A DNA stretch of 64,000 bases. Origin: Stegostoma tigrinum. Its lineage: Eukaryota. Position numbers and translations under genes: made by a program. Below the pieces are notes generated by a model, which was not told where the DNA came from, ran no database searches, and saw nothing but the letters and a program-made list of their open reading frames with translations. The stretch lies in contig NC_081377.1 of the NCBI RefSeq assembly GCF_030684315.1, forward strand, positions 25,172,001 through 25,236,000, given 5' to 3'. Positions 5,162 to 45,600 of this stretch are shown here, piece by piece (positions within the stretch are counted from its first letter, which is position 1; every line of letters begins with the position of its first letter).

Positions 5162-5856
5162 GCGAGGGGCTTAAAGCTGATGCGCATGCTCGCGAGGGGC
5201 TTAAAGCTGATGCGCATGCTCGCGAGGGGCTTAAAGCTGATGCGCATGCTCGCGAGGGGCTTAAAGCTGATGCGCATGCTCGCGAGGGGCTTAAAGCTGA
5301 TGCGCATGCTCGCGAGGGGCTTAAAGCTGATGCGCATGCTCGCGAGGGGCTTAAAGCTGATGCGCATGCTCGCGAGGGGCTTAAAGCTGATGCGCATGCT
5401 CGCGAGGGGCTTAAAGCTGATGCGCATGCTCGCGAGGGGCTTAAAGCTGATGCGCATGCTCGCGAGGGGCTTAAAGCTGATGCGCATGCTCGCGAGGGGC
5501 TTAAAGCTGATGCGCATGCTCGCGAGGGGCTTAAAGCTGATGCGCATGCTCGCGAGGGGCTTAAAGCTGATGCGCATGCTCGCGAGGGGCTTAAAGCTGA
5601 TGCGCATGCTCGCGAGGGGCTTAAAGCTGATGCGCATGCTCGCGAGGGGCTTAAAGCTGATGCGCATGCTCGCGAGGGGCTTAAAGCTGATGCGCATGCT
5701 CGCGAGGGGCTTAAAGCTGATGCGCATGCTCGCGAGGGGCTTAAAGCTGATGCGCATGCTCGCGAGGGGCTTAAAGCTGATGCGCATGCTCGCGAGGGGC
5801 TTAAAGCTGATGCGCATGCTCGCGAGGGGCTTAAAGCTGATGCGCATGCTCGCGAG
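5162..5856. repeat. Perfect 30-bp tandem array, 23 full units plus 5 bp
   Basis: Unit GCGAGGGGCTTAAAGCTGATGCGCATGCTC repeated without any variant from 5162 to 5851, then GCGAG. No spacers. Confidence 0.98.
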
Positions 5857-14787: not shown

Positions 14788-15131
14788 CTGAAACAAAAAA
14801 AAATATTTTAGGCTGCAATTCTTCAAGCTTTTGAAACCTTAACTTGGCTTAAACACACTGCTGACAGGCAATAACAGTACTAAATCAACAACAGGTACAA
14901 TTCAAAAGAACGGAAAACAGCACTGACATTTCAGGTGGTATCCATAAATATTAGGAACATAAATAATCACACGAGAAACTAATGGCAGCAGAAATAATAT
15001 TGCTGGGAAGATTTACTTTCAGTGATGAATCAAAAATAAAGCACAATTTTGAATATCTTGGAGAAAACTATTCTGAAGATAAATTTCTTCAAATTAGATA
15101 CTAAATTAGAAGCTGAACAGATAAATACACA

Positions 15132-15337
15132 GAGATAATGGGAACTGCAGATGCTGGAGAATTCCAAGATAATAAAGTGTGAGGCTGGATGAGCGCAGCG
15201 GGCCGGGCGGCATCTCAGGAGCGCAGGGGCTGATGTTTCGGGCCTCTCTGAAGGGTCTAGGCCCGGGGTGTCGGCTTTTGTGCTCCTGGGATGCTGCTTG
15301 GCCTGCTGTGTTCATCCAGCCTCACATTTTATTATCT
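15132..15337. mobile_element. Penelope-derived palindrome with 14-bp TSD and clustered A>G changes
   Basis: TSD CAGATAAATACACA at 15118-15131 and 15338-15351. Tail + arm + short loop + inverted arm. 16 A>G differences relative to the sister copy at 31918-32275. Confidence 0.92.
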
Positions 15338-15473
15338 CAGATAAATACACATTTGCGTTTATTTGGCATTATAGCTGATGTATAACTCAACAAAGAAGCA
15401 GCAGGTAGATTTGATGAGGTTCTGCAAATTTGAGTTAACCTTAGAACAAGTAAAATTCTTGAAAGAGTAATAA

Positions 15474-16836
15474 GCAACAACCCTGGTAATTATAGACCAG
15501 TGAGCCTTTACCTGTTGGTAAAGTGTTGGAAAAGGTTATAAGAGATAGGATTTATAATCATCTAGAAAAGAATAATTTGATTAGGGATTGTCGGTTTTGT
15601 GAAGGGTAGGCCATGCCTCACAAACCTTATTGAGTTCTTTGAGAAGGTGACCACACAGGTAGATGAGAGTAAACCGGTTGATGTGGTGTATATGGATTTC
15701 AACAGGGCGTTCGATAAGGTTCCCCACAATAGGCTATTGTACAAAATGCAGAGGAATGGGATTGTGGGAGATATAGCAGTTTGGATCAGAAATTGGCTTG
15801 CTGAAAGAAGACAGAGGGTGGTAGTTGATGGGAAATGTTCATCCTGGAGACCAGTTATTAGTGGTGTACCGCAAGGGTCGGTGTTGGGTCCACTGCTGTT
15901 TGTCATTTGTATAAATGACCTGAACGAGGGCGTAGAAGGATGGGTTAGTAAATTTGCAGACGACACTAAGGTCGGTGGAGTTGTGGATAGTGACGAAGGA
16001 TGCTGTAGGTTACAGAGAGACACAGGTAAGCTGCAGACCTGGGCTGAGAGGTCGCAAATGGAGTTTAATGCAGACAAGTGTGAGGTGATGCACTTTAGTA
16101 GGAGTAACCAGAAGGCAAAGTACTGGGCTAATGGTAAGATTCTTGATAGTGTAGATGAGCAGAGAGATCTCAGTGCCCATGTATACAGATTCTTGAAAGT
16201 TGCCACTCAGGTTGACAGGGCTGGTAAGAAGGCATACAGTGTTTTAGCTTTTATTAATAGAGGGATTGAGTTCTGGAACCATGAGGTTATGCTGCAGCTG
16301 TACAAAACTCTGGTGCGGCCGCACTTGGAGTATTGCGTACAGTTCTGGTCAGCACATTATAAGAAGGATGTGGAAGCTTTGGAAAGGGTGCAGAGGAGAT
16401 TTACTAGGATGTTGCCTGGTATGGAGGGAAGGTCTTATGAGGAAAGGCTGAGGGACTTGAGGCTCTTTTCATTAGAGAGAAGGTTGAGAGGTGACTTAAT
16501 TGAAACATATAGAGCAATCAGAGGGTTAGATAGGGTGGATAGGGAGAGCCTTTTCCCTAGGATGCTGACGGTGAGCATGAGGGGGCCTAGCTTTAAATTG
16601 AAAGATGTAGGACAGATGTCAGAGGTAGTTTCTTTACTCAGAGTAGTAAGGGAATGGAACGCTTTGCCTGCAACGGTAGTAGATTCACCAACTTTAAGTA
16701 CATTTAAGTCGTCATTGGACAAGCGTATGGACGTACATGGAATAGTGTAGGTTAGATGGGCTTGAGATCGGTATGTCAGGTCAGCACAACATCGAGGGCC
16801 GAAGGGCCTGTACTGTGCTGTTATGTTCTATGTTAT
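15474..16836 (+). mobile_element. CR1 LINE 5'-truncated copy (RT to 3' tail)
   Basis: 383-aa ORF 15599-16750 with PQGSVLGPLLF, KFADD, LVRPHLEYCVQFW; 3' end TGTTATGTTCTATGTT. Confidence 0.92.
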
Positions 16837-17357
16837 AACTAGACCAACTGACTGCCCTGAAGATATTAAACACCTTCCTACGCTTGGCTAACACAACACA
16901 CAATGAGCAGGCAGAGGTCCCGCAACTAAGTACAATACTAGATCATGCAGATTACCTAGGGCTCAAAAACAGTTAGCAGAAATGCCACATGACCAAGTGT
17001 CATTTCTCCCAAATTCTGGAAGGCAGCAGAATAAACACTGTAGTGTTGTTTAGAAATTAACAAGCAGTACAGTGTTTTGCAACAGCCAATGTGCAATATT
17101 TGCGAATTTGCCAAACAAACCAATGCTGTTCCAACATCCACTGCCATTAGCTAATGGACTAATCTAATGCTATTTAACTTCAATAGTACCCTACAAATTC
17201 CGTTTGCACATTGTGAAATTTACAAATTTTTCTGGTTTCGTAGGATTTGTCAGTATTTTAGGAGACCCACTTTTTAAGAGATACTGCGACCAATTATATC
17301 CCCATTCTTCTGAAAACATGCTGTAAAGCTCTTATGCATGTTCAAAAAAGTAACTAC

Positions 17358-22650: not shown

Positions 22651-23929
22651 TGTCTAAAATGTTGCATTTGCTTAAAGTCCGAAACGAGAAAGACGCAGAA
22701 AATCCTGGAAGGATCTGGAAAGCCAATGCTTTGGCTGTAAATCCTGCTCCAAACCTGTGTTTTCTATTAACCTTTTGGTCAGACGGCCTCTTTCATTTCA
22801 AATAATGTTATTACACCATTTGTATTTTTAAAAACTTTATTTGAATTTTACACTGAAATCCAGGGAGTGATGTTTTAGGTTACTGATCTTCTATTAATAA
22901 AGTGCGAACAAAATAGGAGCAGAAGAAGCCTATTCGGCCCTTCAAGCCTGCCCTGAATAAAAAAGTGATCAAATAGTGTTTCGAATTCCAAATTCTCGTC
23001 TACTCTTGGTAACTGTCGATTCCATTGTTGAGTTGATCAACGATAACAAAGTGTCAAGCTGCATAAACATAGCAGGCCAAGCAGCATCTCAGGAGCACAA
23101 AGGCACACAAAGCAAAACACCCTCGTCCCTCTTCCGCAGCATTTGACAACAGCAATTTAACTGGTTGACCCAATACATAGCAGTAAACAACAATACTGCT
23201 CCCTTATTGTGGTGACATATACAATCAGGTAACATAAAAATGGATATATTATAGGTAAAGAGCGAGCATTAGCATTACATGACAGCACGCCCACCTTACC
23301 CAGAGGCAAATAGTTAGTGCCTACGCAGCACAACCATAAAGTCAAATTCCCAAAAATCCTGCCCTAAGTGAATTCTCACTCTCTACCAACAGTGACTATG
23401 ATTCCCCATCCTTTAATTAGGGTCATGTTTTTGTGTCTTTTTTTCGTGCATCTACACAAAATAAAGGCTCACGTGACAATAAACCTGATGAAAAAAACTC
23501 ATTCTCGCCATCGTGCACATTCCTATGTCGCTCATTTGTGCGTCCCTCAGTGCCTCAAATACATGTAAAATATATCAGAGATAATGGGAACTGCAGATGC
23601 TGGAGAATTCCACGATAATAAAATGTGAGGCTGGATGAACACAGCAGGCCAAGCAGCATCTCAGGACCACAAAAGCTGACATTTCGGGCCTAGACCCTTC
23701 ATCGGAGAGGGGGATGGGGAGAGGGAACTGGAATAAATAGGGAGAGAGGGGGAGGCGGACCGAAGATGGAGAGTAAAGAAGATAGGTGGAGAGAGTGTAA
23801 GTGGGGAGGTTGGGAGGGGATAGGTCGGTCCAGGGAAGACGGACAGGTCAAGGAGGTGGGATGAGGTTAGTAGGTAGCTGGGGGTGCGGCTTGGGGTGGG
23901 AGGAAGGGATGGGTGAGAGCAAGAACCGG

Positions 23930-26155
23930 TTAAGGAGGCAGAGACAGGTTGGACTCGTTTTGGGATGCAGTGGGTGGGGGGGAAGAGCTGGGCTGGTTGT
24001 GTGGTGTAGTGGGGGGAGGGGACGAACTGGGCTGGTTTAGGGATGCAGTAGGGGAAGGGGAGATTTTGAAACTGGTGAAGTCCACATTGATACCATATGG
24101 CTGCAGGGTTCCCAGGCGGAATATGAGTTGCTGTTCCTGCAACCTTCGGGTGGCATCATTGTGGCACTGCAGGAGGCCCATGATGGACATGTCATCTAGA
24201 GAATGGGAGGGGGAGTGGAAATGGTTTGCGACTGGGAGGTGCAGTTGTTTGTTGCGAACTGAGCGGAGGTGTTCTGCAAAGCGGTCTCCAAGCCTCCGCT
24301 TGGTTTCCCCAATGTAGAGGAAGCCGCACCGGGTACAGTGGATGCAGTATACCACATTGGCAGATGTGCAGGTGAACCTCTGCTTAATGTGGAATGTCAT
24401 CTTGGGGCCTGGGATGGGGGTGAGGGAGGAGGTGTGGGGACAGGTGTAGCATTTCCTGCGGTTGCAGGGGAAGGTGCCGGGTGTGGTGGGGTTGGAGAGC
24501 AGTGTGGAGCGAACAAGGGAGTCACGGAGAGAGTGGTCTCTCCGGAAAGCTGACAGGGGAGGGGATGGAAAAATGTCTTGGGTGGTGGGGTCGGATTGTA
24601 AATGGCGGAAGTGTCGGAGGATAATGCGTTGTATCCGGAGGTTGGTAGGGTGGTGTGTGAGAACGAGGGGGATCCTCTTGGGGCGGTTGTGGCGGGGGTG
24701 GGGTGTGAGGGATGTGTTGCGGGAAATACGGGAGACGCGGTCAAGGGCGTTCTCGATCACTGTGGGGGGAAAGTTGCGGTCCTTAAAGAACTTGGACATC
24801 TGGGATGTGCGGGAGTGGAATGTCTTATCGTGGGAGCAGATGCGGCGGAGGCGGAGGAATTGGGAATAGGGGATGGAATTTTTGCAGGAGGGTGGGTGGG
24901 AGGAGGTGTATTCTAGGTAGCTGTGGGAGTCGGTGGGCTTGAAATGGACATCAGTTACATGCTGGTTGCCTGAGATGGAGACTGAGAGGTCCAGGAAGGT
25001 GAGGGATGTGCTGGAGATGGCCCAGGTGAACTGAAGGTTGGGGTGGAAGGTGTTGGTGAAGTGGATGAACTGTTCGAGCTCCTCTGGGGAGCAAGAGGCG
25101 GCACCGATACAGTCATCAATGTACCGGAGGAAGAGGTGGGGTTTGGGGCCTGTGTAGGTGCGGAAGAGGGACTGTTCCACGTAACCTACAAAGAGGCAGG
25201 CATAGCTGGGGCCCATGCGGGTGCCCATGGCCACCCCCTTAGTCTGTAGGAAGTGGGAGGAGTCAAAAGAGAAGTTGTTGAGTGTGAGGACGAGTTCAGC
25301 TAGGCGGATGAGAGTGTCGGTGGAGGGGGACTGGTCGGGCCTGCGGGACAGGAAGAAGCGGAGGGCCTTGAGGCCATCTCCATGCGGAATGCAGGTGTAC
25401 AGGGACTGGACGTCCATGGTGAATATGAGGTGTTGGGGGCCAGGGAATTGGAAGTCCTGGAGGAGGTGGAGGGCGTGGGTGGTGTCACGGACGTAGGTGG
25501 GGAGTTCCTGGACCAAAGGGGAGAAAATGGAGTCCAGATAGGTGGAGATGAGTTCGGTGGGGCAGGAGCAGGCTGAGACGATGGGTCGACCAGGGCAGGC
25601 AGGTTTGTGGATTTTGGGAAGGAGATAGAAACGGGCCGTGCGGGGTTGGGGAACAATGGGGTTGGAGGCTGTGGGTGGGAGGTCCCCTGTGGTGATGAGG
25701 TCGTGAATGGTGTTGGAGATGATGGTTTTGTGCTCGGGTGTGGGGTCATGATTGAGGAGGCGGTAGGAGGTGATGTCGGAGAGTTGGCGTCTGGCCTCGG
25801 CGATGTAGAGGTCAGTGCGCCATACTACCACTGCGCCACCCTTGTCTGCGGGTTTGATGGTGAGGTTGGGGTTGGAGCGGAGGGCTGCCCGTTCTGCGGG
25901 GGAGAGGTTGGAGTGGGTGAGAGGGGTGGAGAGGTTGAGGCGGTTAATGTCTCGACGGCAGTTGGAGATGAAGAGGTCGAGGGAGGGTAGGAGGCCTGGG
26001 GGTGGTGTCCAGGAGGAGGACTTGTGTTGGAAGCGGGTGAAGGGGTCAGTGGAAGGAGGGTTGGGTTCCCGGTTGAAGAAGTAGGCATGGAGGCGAAGAC
26101 GGCGGAAAAACTGCTCTATATCCAACCGTGACTGGTATTCGTTGATGTGTGGTTG
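23930..26155 (-). CDS. Penelope RT + GIY-YIG endonuclease ORF, 5'-truncated, stop-free
   Basis: IKPADKGG, PGRPIVS, TMDVQSLYT, GVAMGTRMGP, LRYIDD (RT); CNRRKCYTC linker; NVVYCIHC..CGFLYIGETKRRLGDRFAEH (GIY-YIG). The first ~70 aa of the 812-aa track ORF are antisense read-through of the inverted arm. Confidence 0.93.
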   Translation of the reverse strand, partial: QPHINEYQSRLDIEQFFRRLRLHAYFFNREPNPPSTDPFTRFQHKSSSWTPPPGLLPSLDLFISNCRRDINRLNLSTPLTHSNLSPAERAALRSNPNLTIKPADKGGAVVVWRTDLYIAEARRQLSDITSYRLLNHDPTPEHKTIISNTIHDLITTGDLPPTASNPIVPQPRTARFYLLPKIHKPACPGRPIVSACSCPTELISTYLDSIFSPLVQELPTYVRDTTHALHLLQDFQFPGPQHLIFTMDVQSLYTCIPHGDGLKALRFFLSRRPDQSPSTDTLIRLAELVLTLNNFSFDSSHFLQTKGVAMGTRMGPSYACLFVGYVEQSLFRTYTGPKPHLFLRYIDDCIGAASCSPEELEQFIHFTNTFHPNLQFTWAISSTSLTFLDLSVSISGNQHVTDVHFKPTDSHSYLEYTSSHPPSCKNSIPYSQFLRLRRICSHDKTFHSRTSQMSKFFKDRNFPPTVIENALDRVSRISRNTSLTPHPRHNRPKRIPLVLTHHPTNLRIQRIILRHFRHLQSDPTTQDIFPSPPLSAFRRDHSLRDSLVRSTLLSNPTTPGTFPCNRRKCYTCPHTSSLTPIPGPKMTFHIKQRFTCTSANVVYCIHCTRCGFLYIGETKRRLGDRFAEHLRSVRNKQLHLPVANHFHSPSHSLDDMSIMGLLQCHNDATRRLQEQQLIFRLGTLQPYGINVDFTSFKISPSPTASLNQPSSSPPPTTPHNQPSSSPPPTASQNESNLSLPP

Positions 26156-27040
26156 TCCCGCACATCCCAGATGTCCAAGTTCTTTAAGGACCGCAACTTT
26201 CCCCCCACAGTGATCGAGAACGCCCTTGACCGCGTCTCCCGTATTTCCCGCAACACATCCCTCACACCCCACCCCCGCCACAACCGCCCCAAGAGGATCC
26301 CCCTCGTTCTCACACACCACCCTACCAACCTCCGGATACAACGCATTATCCTCCGACACTTCCGCCATTTACAATCCGACCCCACCACCCAAGACATTTT
26401 TCCATCCCCTCCCCTGTCAGCTTTCCGGAGAGACCACTCTCTCCGTGACTCCCTTGTTCGCTCCACACTGCCCTCCAACCCCACCACACCCGGCAACTTC
26501 CCCTGCAACCGCAGGAAATGCTACACCTGTCCCCACACCTCCTCCCTCACCCCCATCCCAGGCCCCAAGATGACATTCCACATTAAGCAGAGGTTCACCT
26601 GCACATCTGCCAATGTGGTATACTGCATCCACTGTACCCGGTGCGGCTTCCTCTACATTGGGGAAACCAAGCGGAGGCTTGGGGACCGCTTTGCAGAACA
26701 CCTCCGCTCAGTTCGCAACAAACAACTGCACCTCCCAGTCGCAAACCATTTCCACTCCCCCTCCCATTCTCTAGATGACATGTCCATCATGGGCCTCCTG
26801 CAGTGCCACAATGATGCCACCCGAAGGTTGCAGGAACAGCAACTCATATTCCGCCTGGGAACCCTGCAGCCATATGGTATCAATGTGGACTTCACCAGTT
26901 TCAAAATCTCCCCTTCCCCTACTGCATCCCTAAACCAGCCCAGTTCGTCCCCTCCCCCCACTACACCACACAACCAGCCCAGCTCTTCCCCCCCACCCAC
27001 TGCATCCCAAAACGAGTCCAACCTGTCTCTGCCTCCTTAA
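26156..27040 (+). pseudogene. Inverted partial copy of the Penelope ORF (thumb/linker + GIY-YIG)
   Basis: The 297-aa track ORF matches the C-terminus of the minus-strand ORF except LLS/LPS and GTF/GNF. Confidence 0.85.
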
Positions 27041-27259
27041 CCGGTTCTTCCTCTCACCCATCCCTTCCTCCCACCCCAAGCCGCACCCCCAGCTACCTAC
27101 TAACCTCATCCCACCTCCTTGACCTGTCTGTCTTCCCTGGACCGACCTATCCCCTCCCTACCTCCCCACCTACACTCTCTCCACCTATCTTCTTTACTCT
27201 CCATCTTCGGTCCGCCTCCCCCTCTCTCCCTATTTATTCCAATTCCCTCTCCCCATCTC

Positions 27260-27297
27260 CCTCTCTGATGAAGGGTCTAGGCCCGAAACGTCAGCTT
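27260..27297 (+). ncRNA. Minimal hammerhead ribozyme motif in the Penelope terminal repeat
   Basis: CTGATGA (27265-27271), stem II aGGG-tctagg-CCC, then GAAAC-GTC (27285-27292). The palindromic ACGT stem III is typical of dimer-forming PLE hammerheads. Confidence 0.75.
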
Positions 27298-27983
27298 TTA
27301 TGCTCCTGAGATGCTGCTTGGCCTGCTGTGTTCATCCAGCCTCACATTTTATTATCTTACATGTAAAATATAGTCGTGTATTTGTAAGAGATGTCCTTAG
27401 GATTTTTGGATAGAGTCAAACTCAAAATATTTTTGTTTCCTTGATATGCTACTGCACAACACCAAACTGCATTTGTGACGATGTCTGAATGCAAAGGTTT
27501 TGTTTTTATGTAAAAAATGTATTTATGAAATAATTTTTGAACATTATGTCCCATATCATTAAGAACAGGGAATGCTGGGGGCAACCTGCAGATGTGTGCA
27601 GAGAGACCAAGGAAAAAATGCAACATTTAACGTTTCGAGTGTAATATGTGACGTCTTCAGAATGAGCATCCGAGCTATTTTAGTGCCTCCCGTGAGTATT
27701 TTTCAGTGGAGCCGCTCAGGATGGATTGGACTGGCAGAGATGTCCCTGTCCCCTTCCTCATCGCTGACACCTCCCAAAGCCCATTACCCGGGATCAGTCC
27801 TCCAGGAGCTGCAGTACCACTGTCAGAGAGAGAGGGGTCGCTGACGGCCGGCTTGTACCACCACCACACCCCCCGATCCCGTCCACTCCCTTCCTCCCAC
27901 CCCGGGGGCTCGGTTTCTGCCGCTGTTGGTTCGAGCCTCCAGGGGATCCTTTGTACTAGTCGCTTGTGGCCACACAGTCTCTA

Positions 27984-31917: not shown

Positions 31918-32275
31918 GAGAGATAATGGGAACTGCAGATGCTGGAGATTCCAAGATAATAAAATGTGAGGCTGGATGAACACAGCAGGCCAAGCAGCAT
32001 CTCAGGAGCACAAAAGCTGACGTTTCGGGCCTAGACCCTTCATCAGAGAGGGGGATGGGGGGAGGGAACTGGAATAAATAGGGAGAGAGGGGGAGGCGGA
32101 CCGAAGATGGAGAGTGACTCTCCATCTTCGGTCCGCCTCCCCCTCTCTCCCTATTTATTCCAGTTCCCTCCCCCCATCCCCCTCTCTGATGAAGGGTCTA
32201 GGCCCGAAACGTCAGCTTTTGTGCTCCTGAGATGCTGCTTGGCCTGCTGTGTTCATCCAGCCTCACATTTTATTA
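31918..32275. mobile_element. Perfect Penelope-derived palindrome (159-bp arms, 1-nt loop, 39-nt tail) with 15-bp TSD
   Basis: TSD CCCAAGATATCTGTA at 31903-31917 and 32276-32290. Arms 31957-32115 and 32117-32275, centred on G32116. Intact hammerhead cores at 32186-32213 (+) and 32019-32046 (-). Confidence 0.95.
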
Positions 32276-44716: not shown

Positions 44717-45202
44717 TTATCTTCCCGAGCGGACTAACCCAGGTCTGGAAGGCACCATCATCGGCCGGTGAGGCCCCATCATAGGCCCCGACATCATAGG
44801 CATCGGGCCACCGATAGGCGGTCTCATCCCTGGGCCTACCAGCATCATGCCAGGAGGCGCGGGGCCCATCATCGGCATCATGGGCGGCCCTCCCATTGGG
44901 GGGCCCGGCAGGATGGCAGGCCGCGGCGGTGGAACACCAACATTGCCGTGTGGCGGCGGGATGGCGGCTCCGCCGGGAGGAGGACCAGCCGGCGCCGGAA
45001 ACGGTGCGGTGGGCGGGATCTTCCCTTGGCGGAAAGCAGCAGTGGTCTTATCGATGAGGCTCTGGGCCTGTTCTTCCATCCATTTCTGGTAATAGTCCTT
45101 GACGTTTTCCTTGTGTTTGCGGCCCTCGCAGTGAGTCTTGCGAACAGACGGCGAATCGTGTGTTAAATAAGTATCACAGTAATCGCAATAATACTTCGGC
45201 AT
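44717..45202 (-). CDS. SNRPC: U1 small nuclear ribonucleoprotein C (U1-C), single-exon CDS
   Basis: 161 aa: [54 protein letters not shown] (U1-type zinc finger) plus a Pro/Met/Gly-rich tail; no introns or stops; gacATG context; AATAAA (minus) at 44033-44038 and 43933-43938. Confidence 0.97.
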
Positions 45203-45204
45203 GT

Positions 45205-45600
45205 CGTCGGTACAGCAGCGAGGAGGTGCGCATGCGCCGGACCTTCAACTGCCCTTTATATACTTACCGCGTGCGTCACTGCGCTGAAACCGTCAGGGAT
45301 CACGTGACTATTCGACGCTAAGGGGCATGCGCATCTCCAGCTGTCGTCTGAGGGTGTAACCAGTATTGTTTGTGATCGTCTTTATCGGTGGCCGAGGAAG
45401 TATGCATTCTTTTCATAGATGGGGGATTTTTTAAAAAGAGTTTAATTTGTGCGTTTGTTTTAATTCGCAGTCTGGCAGCAGTCATACTCGTCGTCGTCGT
45501 TGTTTTAGATAGAGATGCCCTGCGGCTTAACCGGAGTATTAAAGGGGTCGCTGCAGCTGCGTTTGGAGCATGCGCACATCCGTTTCTTCTTGCACTGGGA
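45205..45600. promoter_or_regulatory. Bidirectional CpG-island promoter shared by SNRPC and TMEM50A
   Basis: NRF1-type TGCGCATGCGC at 45227-45237, GCATGCGCA at ~45325 and ~45568; TATATAAAG (minus) at ~45254-45262; CRE-like TGCGTCA at 45272-45278; E-box TCACGTGA at 45300-45307. Confidence 0.8.
45340..45399 (+). other. TMEM50A: Putative non-coding exon 1 of TMEM50A
   Basis: GAGGAA|gtatgc donor at the edge of the CpG island. The first coding exon begins with an acceptor 1 nt before the ATG, so an upstream exon must exist. TSS uncertain. Confidence 0.5.

Follow-up and report, generated by a model that had tools for sequence, protein, structure and literature searches.

A probable ADAR-hyper-edited transcript copied into an RSRP1 intron from a CR1-type tail, with its unedited parent in the same genome

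Introduction

A-to-G hyperediting has been described in two avian retroviruses, RAV-1 and avian leukosis virus (Felder 1994; Hajjar and Linial 1995, as cited in PMC8586724). Deaminase footprints of another kind, the APOBEC 'DNA editing' of LTR retrotransposons, have been documented in vertebrate genomes (PMC4866542, PMC2873906); the word 'ADAR' is absent from the main text of the first of these papers. Stringent LINEs mobilise RNAs in a tail-dependent manner, an example being the HE1 SINE and HER1 LINE of sharks and rays (PMC3747384). Penelope-like elements (PLEs) of the EN+ type carry inverted pLTRs and a 30-40-bp tail, and are described as capturing host sequences in trans (PMC3846280, 10.1101/2021.04.23.441226, PMC11167929). 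A literature search, which covered main texts and a minority of subscription papers, brought up neither ADAR-edited copies of cellular retroelements fixed in a genome nor edited cellular transcripts that had become fixed through LINE transduction.

The window, by which we mean the whole stretch of 64,000 nucleotides that was analysed, holds a Penelope-type hairpin at 15132-15337 that an initial annotation had singled out for its clustered A>G differences. We consider it very probable that a read-through RNA of a second locus, on contig C24 of the same genome, was hyper-edited by ADAR and then copied into an intron of RSRP1 from its CR1 3' tail by a CR1 LINE enzyme.

The edited hairpin and its parent

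Alignment with the sister copy at 31919-32275 confirmed all 16 A>G substitutions, 11 of them between 15177 and 15228 in the left arm and five between 15266 and 15289 in the right, and all on the + strand in both arms. As for other differences from the sister, the two CpG C>T changes (15234, 15269) were found as annotated; a 3-bp deletion at the turn had gone unmentioned. Searching the genome with 15000-15480 gave one match that spans the whole query, on contig C24 (Table 1). This parent and its daughter in the window share both flanks, the target-site duplication (TSD) and both CpG changes; the parent lacks the 3-bp deletion and has A at all 16 sites. The G states are not a subfamily consensus, the case against which the initial annotation had cautioned. 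No daughter copies of the edited hairpin were seen among the best 40 of 3559 candidates in the same genome.

Table 1. Features of the insertion and related elements in the window
Feature	Position	Strand	Remarks
RSRP1 intron hosting the insertion in antisense	14788..17357	-	spliced contig of run X6
Whole inserted segment, copy of G000:C24:20840007-20838116	14953..16836	+	98.2% identity, 1892 columns, sharp ends
Unique 5' flank brought from parent locus	14953..15117	+	without A>G
Left TSD of original Penelope insertion	15118..15130	+	inherited from parent locus
Penelope 'tail' outside the long duplex	15131..15167	-	0/14 A's changed
Left arm, Penelope antisense on +	15168..15245	-	11/26 A's changed to G
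Turn and right arm, Penelope sense	15246..15337	+	minimal-hammerhead motif disrupted; 5 A>G; 3 bp deleted
Right TSD	15338..15350	+	inherited from parent locus
Unique spacer from parent locus	15351..15476	+	zero changes
5'-truncated CR1-type LINE: RT fragment, 3' UTR, short tandem tail	15477..16836	+	RVT_1 E 1e-21
Near full-length Penelope-like element, same family, 812-aa frame with RT and GIY-YIG; defines sense strand	23577..27358	-	
Unedited sister hairpin, used as reference	31919..32275	.	

Measured against the parent, the 16 A>G are the only substitutions in the arms, that is, a one-strand cluster with few other changes of the kind left by ADAR. The confinement to long duplex that is also part of an ADAR footprint is equally apparent: 16 of the 39 A's of the arms have changed, compared with 0/133 in the unique flanks and, as the initial annotation had noted, none in the A-rich tail. 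Background divergence predicts about one change per 170 bp, and the probability of 16 or more is of the order of 2e-14. In an alignment with 29 other genomic loci the cluster is confined to the copy at 15132-15337. A 5' G precedes two of the 16 edits, as had been claimed; as a sign of 5'-G avoidance the figure is weak when this copy is taken by itself (2/10 versus 14/31). Folding of the parent hairpin gives -169 kcal/mol (z -21.9) and a nearly perfect duplex some 80 bp long.

The inserted segment is 1,884 bp long and its junctions are exact, at 14953 and at 16836, where the tandem tail of the LINE has its final base. The edited strand is the sense strand of the LINE, which is the one that its RT would copy. 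We take this LINE to be of CR1 type from the kind of tail that it carries; its protein-level identification consists of the RVT_1 match. Within the LINE 3/389 A's differ between parent and daughter, and only one of the three is daughter-derived, judged by other copies. Ten further substitutions separate the two loci over roughly 1.7 kb, and the copy is thus young. No TSD of the 1.9-kb insertion is visible at its junctions, and about 10 bp seem to have been lost at the site; CR1 insertions often lack TSDs.

The host gene RSRP1 lies on the minus strand, as annotated: the Pfam RSRP domain is found in the next exon, and a spliced contig of run X6 skips the intron with CT..AC ends. Since the insertion is antisense in this intron, the edits did not come from RSRP1 pre-mRNA, which would have given T>C here, as the initial annotation had reasoned. 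It had also suggested looking at the orthologous locus in a relative. In the related organism B the 1.9-kb insertion is absent: one X14 contig links 14952 to 16841 with 14 letters between them and without a TSD. Contigs of run X9 break at 14952/14953. Another contig of organism B fits 14953-15129 and 15380-15472 only, which shows that B's parent locus is without the hairpin; from 48 testable bases, it is probably without the LINE as well. Both junctions are present in a second sample of organism A (X4 contigs).

A scan of 120 of the 315 candidate frames in the 160 kb around the parent turned up no host gene within about 80 kb of it, and a match to Atrophin-1 was rejected as a gene because it is an AG microsatellite. 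The RNA-like runs X5 and X6 have no coverage of the unique flanks, so that no transcript of the parent was seen in them, which is evidence neither for nor against its transcription. On the parent's strand, 25-29 kb upstream of it, there is a LINE with ZCCHC3-type RNA-binding domains and an RT (L037, 4980-8729, minus strand), a conceivable source of read-through.

The events at the two loci can be arranged into a pathway in which we infer ADAR, inosine and the CR1 enzyme from their signatures. A Penelope hairpin and a CR1 piece would have inserted 140 bp apart at the C24 locus, and a transcript running through both would have folded into the near-perfect duplex of roughly 80 bp. In a germline or early embryonic cell ADAR may then have converted about 40% of the duplex A's to inosine, after which the CR1 RT would have bound the tail in trans, reading each inosine as G and coming to a halt after 1.9 kb (a 5' transduction), the product later becoming fixed. 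ADAR acting on the parent RNA, followed by reverse transcription from the CR1 tail, explains the strand of the edits, their confinement and the ends of the insertion. The earlier proposal that a complete hairpin was edited in ADAR fashion before integration is supported.

A further proposal, that the edits record a conflict between ADAR and a ribozyme, found no evidence in its favour. The minimal hammerhead of PLEs (CUGANGA, stem II, GAAA, UH) is intact in the sister copy and broken in the edited one, which also lacks 3 bp of the hammerhead core; this stub is a passenger, and the parent already carries a C>T beside the GAAA. An Rfam search of the window returned no match, and cleavage was not required for insertion in vitro in the experiments reported in PMC11167929.

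Elsewhere in the window, an intronless U1-C-like frame (44717-45244, minus strand; Pfam zf-U1) is possibly a retrocopy of SNRPC, and a perfect 30-bp tandem array at 5162-5856 directly follows a LINE 3' end.

Edited copies across the genome

Three search patterns, each of which forces two A>G, found 184, 42 and 38 matches in the genome. The 184 matches compare with 41 for a forced double G>A and with 113,699 for the consensus. By hand count, further A>G within the 30-mer are present in 69 of the first 100 A>G matches listed, and further non-CpG G>A in four of the 41 control matches. Ninety pattern loci and the window copy were examined in detail, leaving 73 after the removal of 18 overlaps.

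The neighbour preference of ADAR emerges across the family. Counting only positions outside all search patterns (14 arms of 11 loci), the edited fraction is 55/66 (83%) after U, 76/89 (85%) after A, 36/55 (65%) after C and 61/185 (33%) after G; this order, with U and A above C and C above G, agrees with the neighbour rule given in PMC8586724. In the four true parent-daughter hairpins alone the effect of a 5' G is not significant (20/48 versus 65/125, P 0.24), and it is the A's after U that are least edited (5/20).

One class of edited copies resembles the window copy. It comprises 15 loci, chosen by eye, that are two-armed and edited on the same strand in both arms. Parents were sought for three more of these, and all three have an unedited parent sharing their flanks, which makes four out of four with the window copy; the duplicated segments of these three, of 2.9, 4.5 and over 7.2 kb, stop at a CR1 tail that lies on the edited strand. 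In all four pairs the 3' end thus lies at the tail of a LINE that is sense to the template RNA, as is expected of a LINE product. For one pair of 2,916 bp, A>G make up 29 of the 30 differences, every one inside the hairpin. A CR1-type tail (of a LINE or a SINE) lies at most 1.4 kb downstream on the edited strand at 9/15 same-strand loci, as against 1/15 at the mirror position and 2/56 at the sides of unedited copies; in stretches of 10 kb such a tail is present in 15/16, and on the opposite strand in 3/16. At one locus (L153, G000:C11 28.97 Mb) there is a third copy of a CR1-ended 4.2-kb segment, without the hairpin; duplication of this locus seems both to have preceded and to have followed the arrival of the hairpin. 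On G000:C34 two edited copies, L182 and L183, lie 430 kb from each other and have near-equal edit counts, possibly through later duplication of an edited copy.

In the RNA-like run X5, contigs resembling the edited arm (15200-15234) are far more numerous than in DNA runs, the ratio of depth at 15200-15234 to that at 15130-15164 being 5.9% in X5 and 0.13-0.17% in the DNA runs. This excess is a weak hint of present-day editing of the hairpin family.

Mirrored hairpins and the Penelope-like element

A second class bears on the Penelope-like element itself. The element in the window has an 812-aa open frame at 23930-26368 and a 1.2-kb inverted copy that is 99% complementary. RVT_1 (E 1e-5) and GIY-YIG (E 2e-4) are matched, both under Pfam cut-offs, and a CX4CxxC is present, so that the combination of an RT, a C-terminal GIY-YIG and a CX2-5CxxC linker would place it with EN+ PLEs of the Neptune/Nematis type; the inverted pLTR, the one-sided tail and the TSD agree with this assignment.

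In 16 short mirrored hairpins (seven from the examined loci and nine from the list of sense-pattern matches) the A>G fall on the Penelope sense strand as defined by the 812-aa frame, and 66 of 73 edits are common to both arms, which are identical in 11/16; comparison between loci gives 50% shared edits and 3/240 identical pairs, two sites per arm being forced by the search pattern in both comparisons alike. A TSD is visible in 15 of the 16. Close mirrored pairs number 11 among the first 100 sense-pattern matches listed, versus none in 80 antisense-pattern matches. Longer TSD-flanked palindromes likewise share edits between their halves (38/38, 16/16, 13/13, 12/14 and 22/34), and one of these, 2.8 kb long with 18 edits per half, has an unedited parent. 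No parent was found for the mirrored locus L074 among the best 40 of 5886 candidates, or for L126 among the best 40 of 2011.

Both arms of the mirrored copies are likely to come from one sense RNA molecule, and the Penelope RT likely copies sense RNA and captures upstream host RNA as well. Later arm-to-arm conversion is argued against by the same-strand passengers, which keep the mismatches between their arms. Two candidate routes lead to the second arm: two reads of the RNA, and fold-back of the cDNA. The initial annotation had expected the edits to reveal the template strand of Penelope, which they do in other family copies and do not in the copy at 15132-15337. Four Penelope-route palindromes (L077, L134, L180 and L181) have 13-38 edits in the inner arm and 0-1 in the outer, tail-bearing arm, despite the fact that both arms should be paired; perhaps the RT can start only where the RNA is unedited, or else it switches templates. 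In L126 (G000:C18 40.396 Mb) the tail arm is unedited, and the second arm is edited and of an older subfamily type; this hairpin has no TSD.

The same CR1 route, together with a second, Penelope-driven route, likely explains many other edited copies in this genome. In its widest form, which we regard as probable and hold less firmly than the route proposed for the window copy, ADAR-hyper-edited host transcripts would routinely return to the germline via the enzymes of two retroelements. The loci concerned would number well over a hundred, each with a findable unedited parent. The edits would barcode single RNA molecules; wherever a transcript ends in a CR1 stub, CR1 would transduce kilobases of the host sequence upstream of it, and Penelope would derive its two inverted arms from a single molecule of sense RNA.

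Alternative explanations

The TSD directly adjoins the hairpin, and edited RNAs have been copied by Penelope elsewhere, as the 2.8-kb palindrome and its unedited parent illustrate; the hairpin might accordingly have been re-mobilised by the Penelope RT as an edited dsRNA hairpin, one of the alternatives raised in the initial annotation. For the copy at 15132-15337 this is refuted by the parent locus and retains hardly any probability: the TSD and both flanks are present unedited at C24, the mobile unit is 1.9 kb long and ends at the CR1 tail, and the edited strand has the Penelope tail at its 5' end, which rules out a start of the Penelope RT at that point. An artefact of RNA-based polishing or of sequencing errors through the hairpin is just as improbable. 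The edited letters are seen directly in one run only, X1, which may be the assembly's own sample; in that run a 119-bp short-read DNA contig is identical to 15179-15297, with 0 differences over 15 of the 16 sites, which places the G's in the reads. Such a cluster is moreover lacking in 28/28 other aligned hairpins, and edited copies track CR1 tails.

Two readings that place the change in DNA are very unlikely, though slightly less so. The first is a DNA-level duplication, after which repair or gene conversion, with the edited RNA or its cDNA as template, would have brought in the edits. The lack of a TSD around the insertion would suit it, but 4/4 duplications stop exactly at the CR1 tail on the edited strand, and the local gene is transcribed from the other strand, so that T>C would be expected. 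The other is deamination of DNA, either by ADAR on an RNA:cDNA hybrid, as the initial annotation had also considered, or by some unknown adenine deaminase acting on hairpin DNA during integration. A folded second-strand DNA hairpin is compatible with the sequence taken alone; edits in first-strand cDNA, however, would read T>C on the CR1 (RNA) strand, span the whole hybrid and not spare the flanks and the CR1 piece, in which no flank A has changed and one of three A/G differences, respectively, is daughter-derived. The preferred neighbours are those of ADAR acting on dsRNA. Editing of the parent RNA by ADAR, followed by copying from the CR1 tail, is the reading that we retain.

Perspective

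The component processes are already known; the present locus contributes a parent matched to its daughter, an outgroup with the empty site, and transduction by CR1 as the route. If the reading is correct, RNA editing has become heritable DNA in a vertebrate, with matched copies from before and after the event, and such copies preserve, as fossils, a record of ADAR activity in the germline and of the RNAs that reach retrotransposon enzymes. Hyper-edited RNA would still be usable as a template, and a 'stringent' LINE could duplicate host sequence via 5' transduction. The mirrored class makes the strand copied by Penelope, and the origin of its inverted arms, testable from sequence.

As in RAV-1 and avian leukosis virus, ADAR-type clusters would have arisen in RNA and then been fixed in DNA by reverse transcriptase; unlike in the avian retroviruses, the RNA here is a cellular read-through, the RT is that of a LINE or of Penelope, the product is inherited and the unedited parent resides in the same genome. 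With APOBEC editing our case has in common that deaminase footprints are fixed in genomic copies of retroelements and are found by comparing parent and daughter, but the former consists of G>A from C-to-U on the cDNA of LTR elements, and the latter of duplex-limited A>G from RNA. The HE1/HER1 pair is a precedent for a CR1-type 3' tail that suffices for copying an RNA in trans, although here the cargo is no SINE and consists of 1.9 to over 7 kb of the single-copy genomic sequence that precedes a CR1 stub. The hairpin anatomy, the tail, the TSD and the capture of flanking sequence are those of EN+ Penelope-like elements. In PMC3846280 self-priming on an antisense template was proposed for such elements, whereas the mirrored edits found here lie on the sense strand and are identical between the arms; they fit the model of PMC11167929, with its sense template and two start sites.
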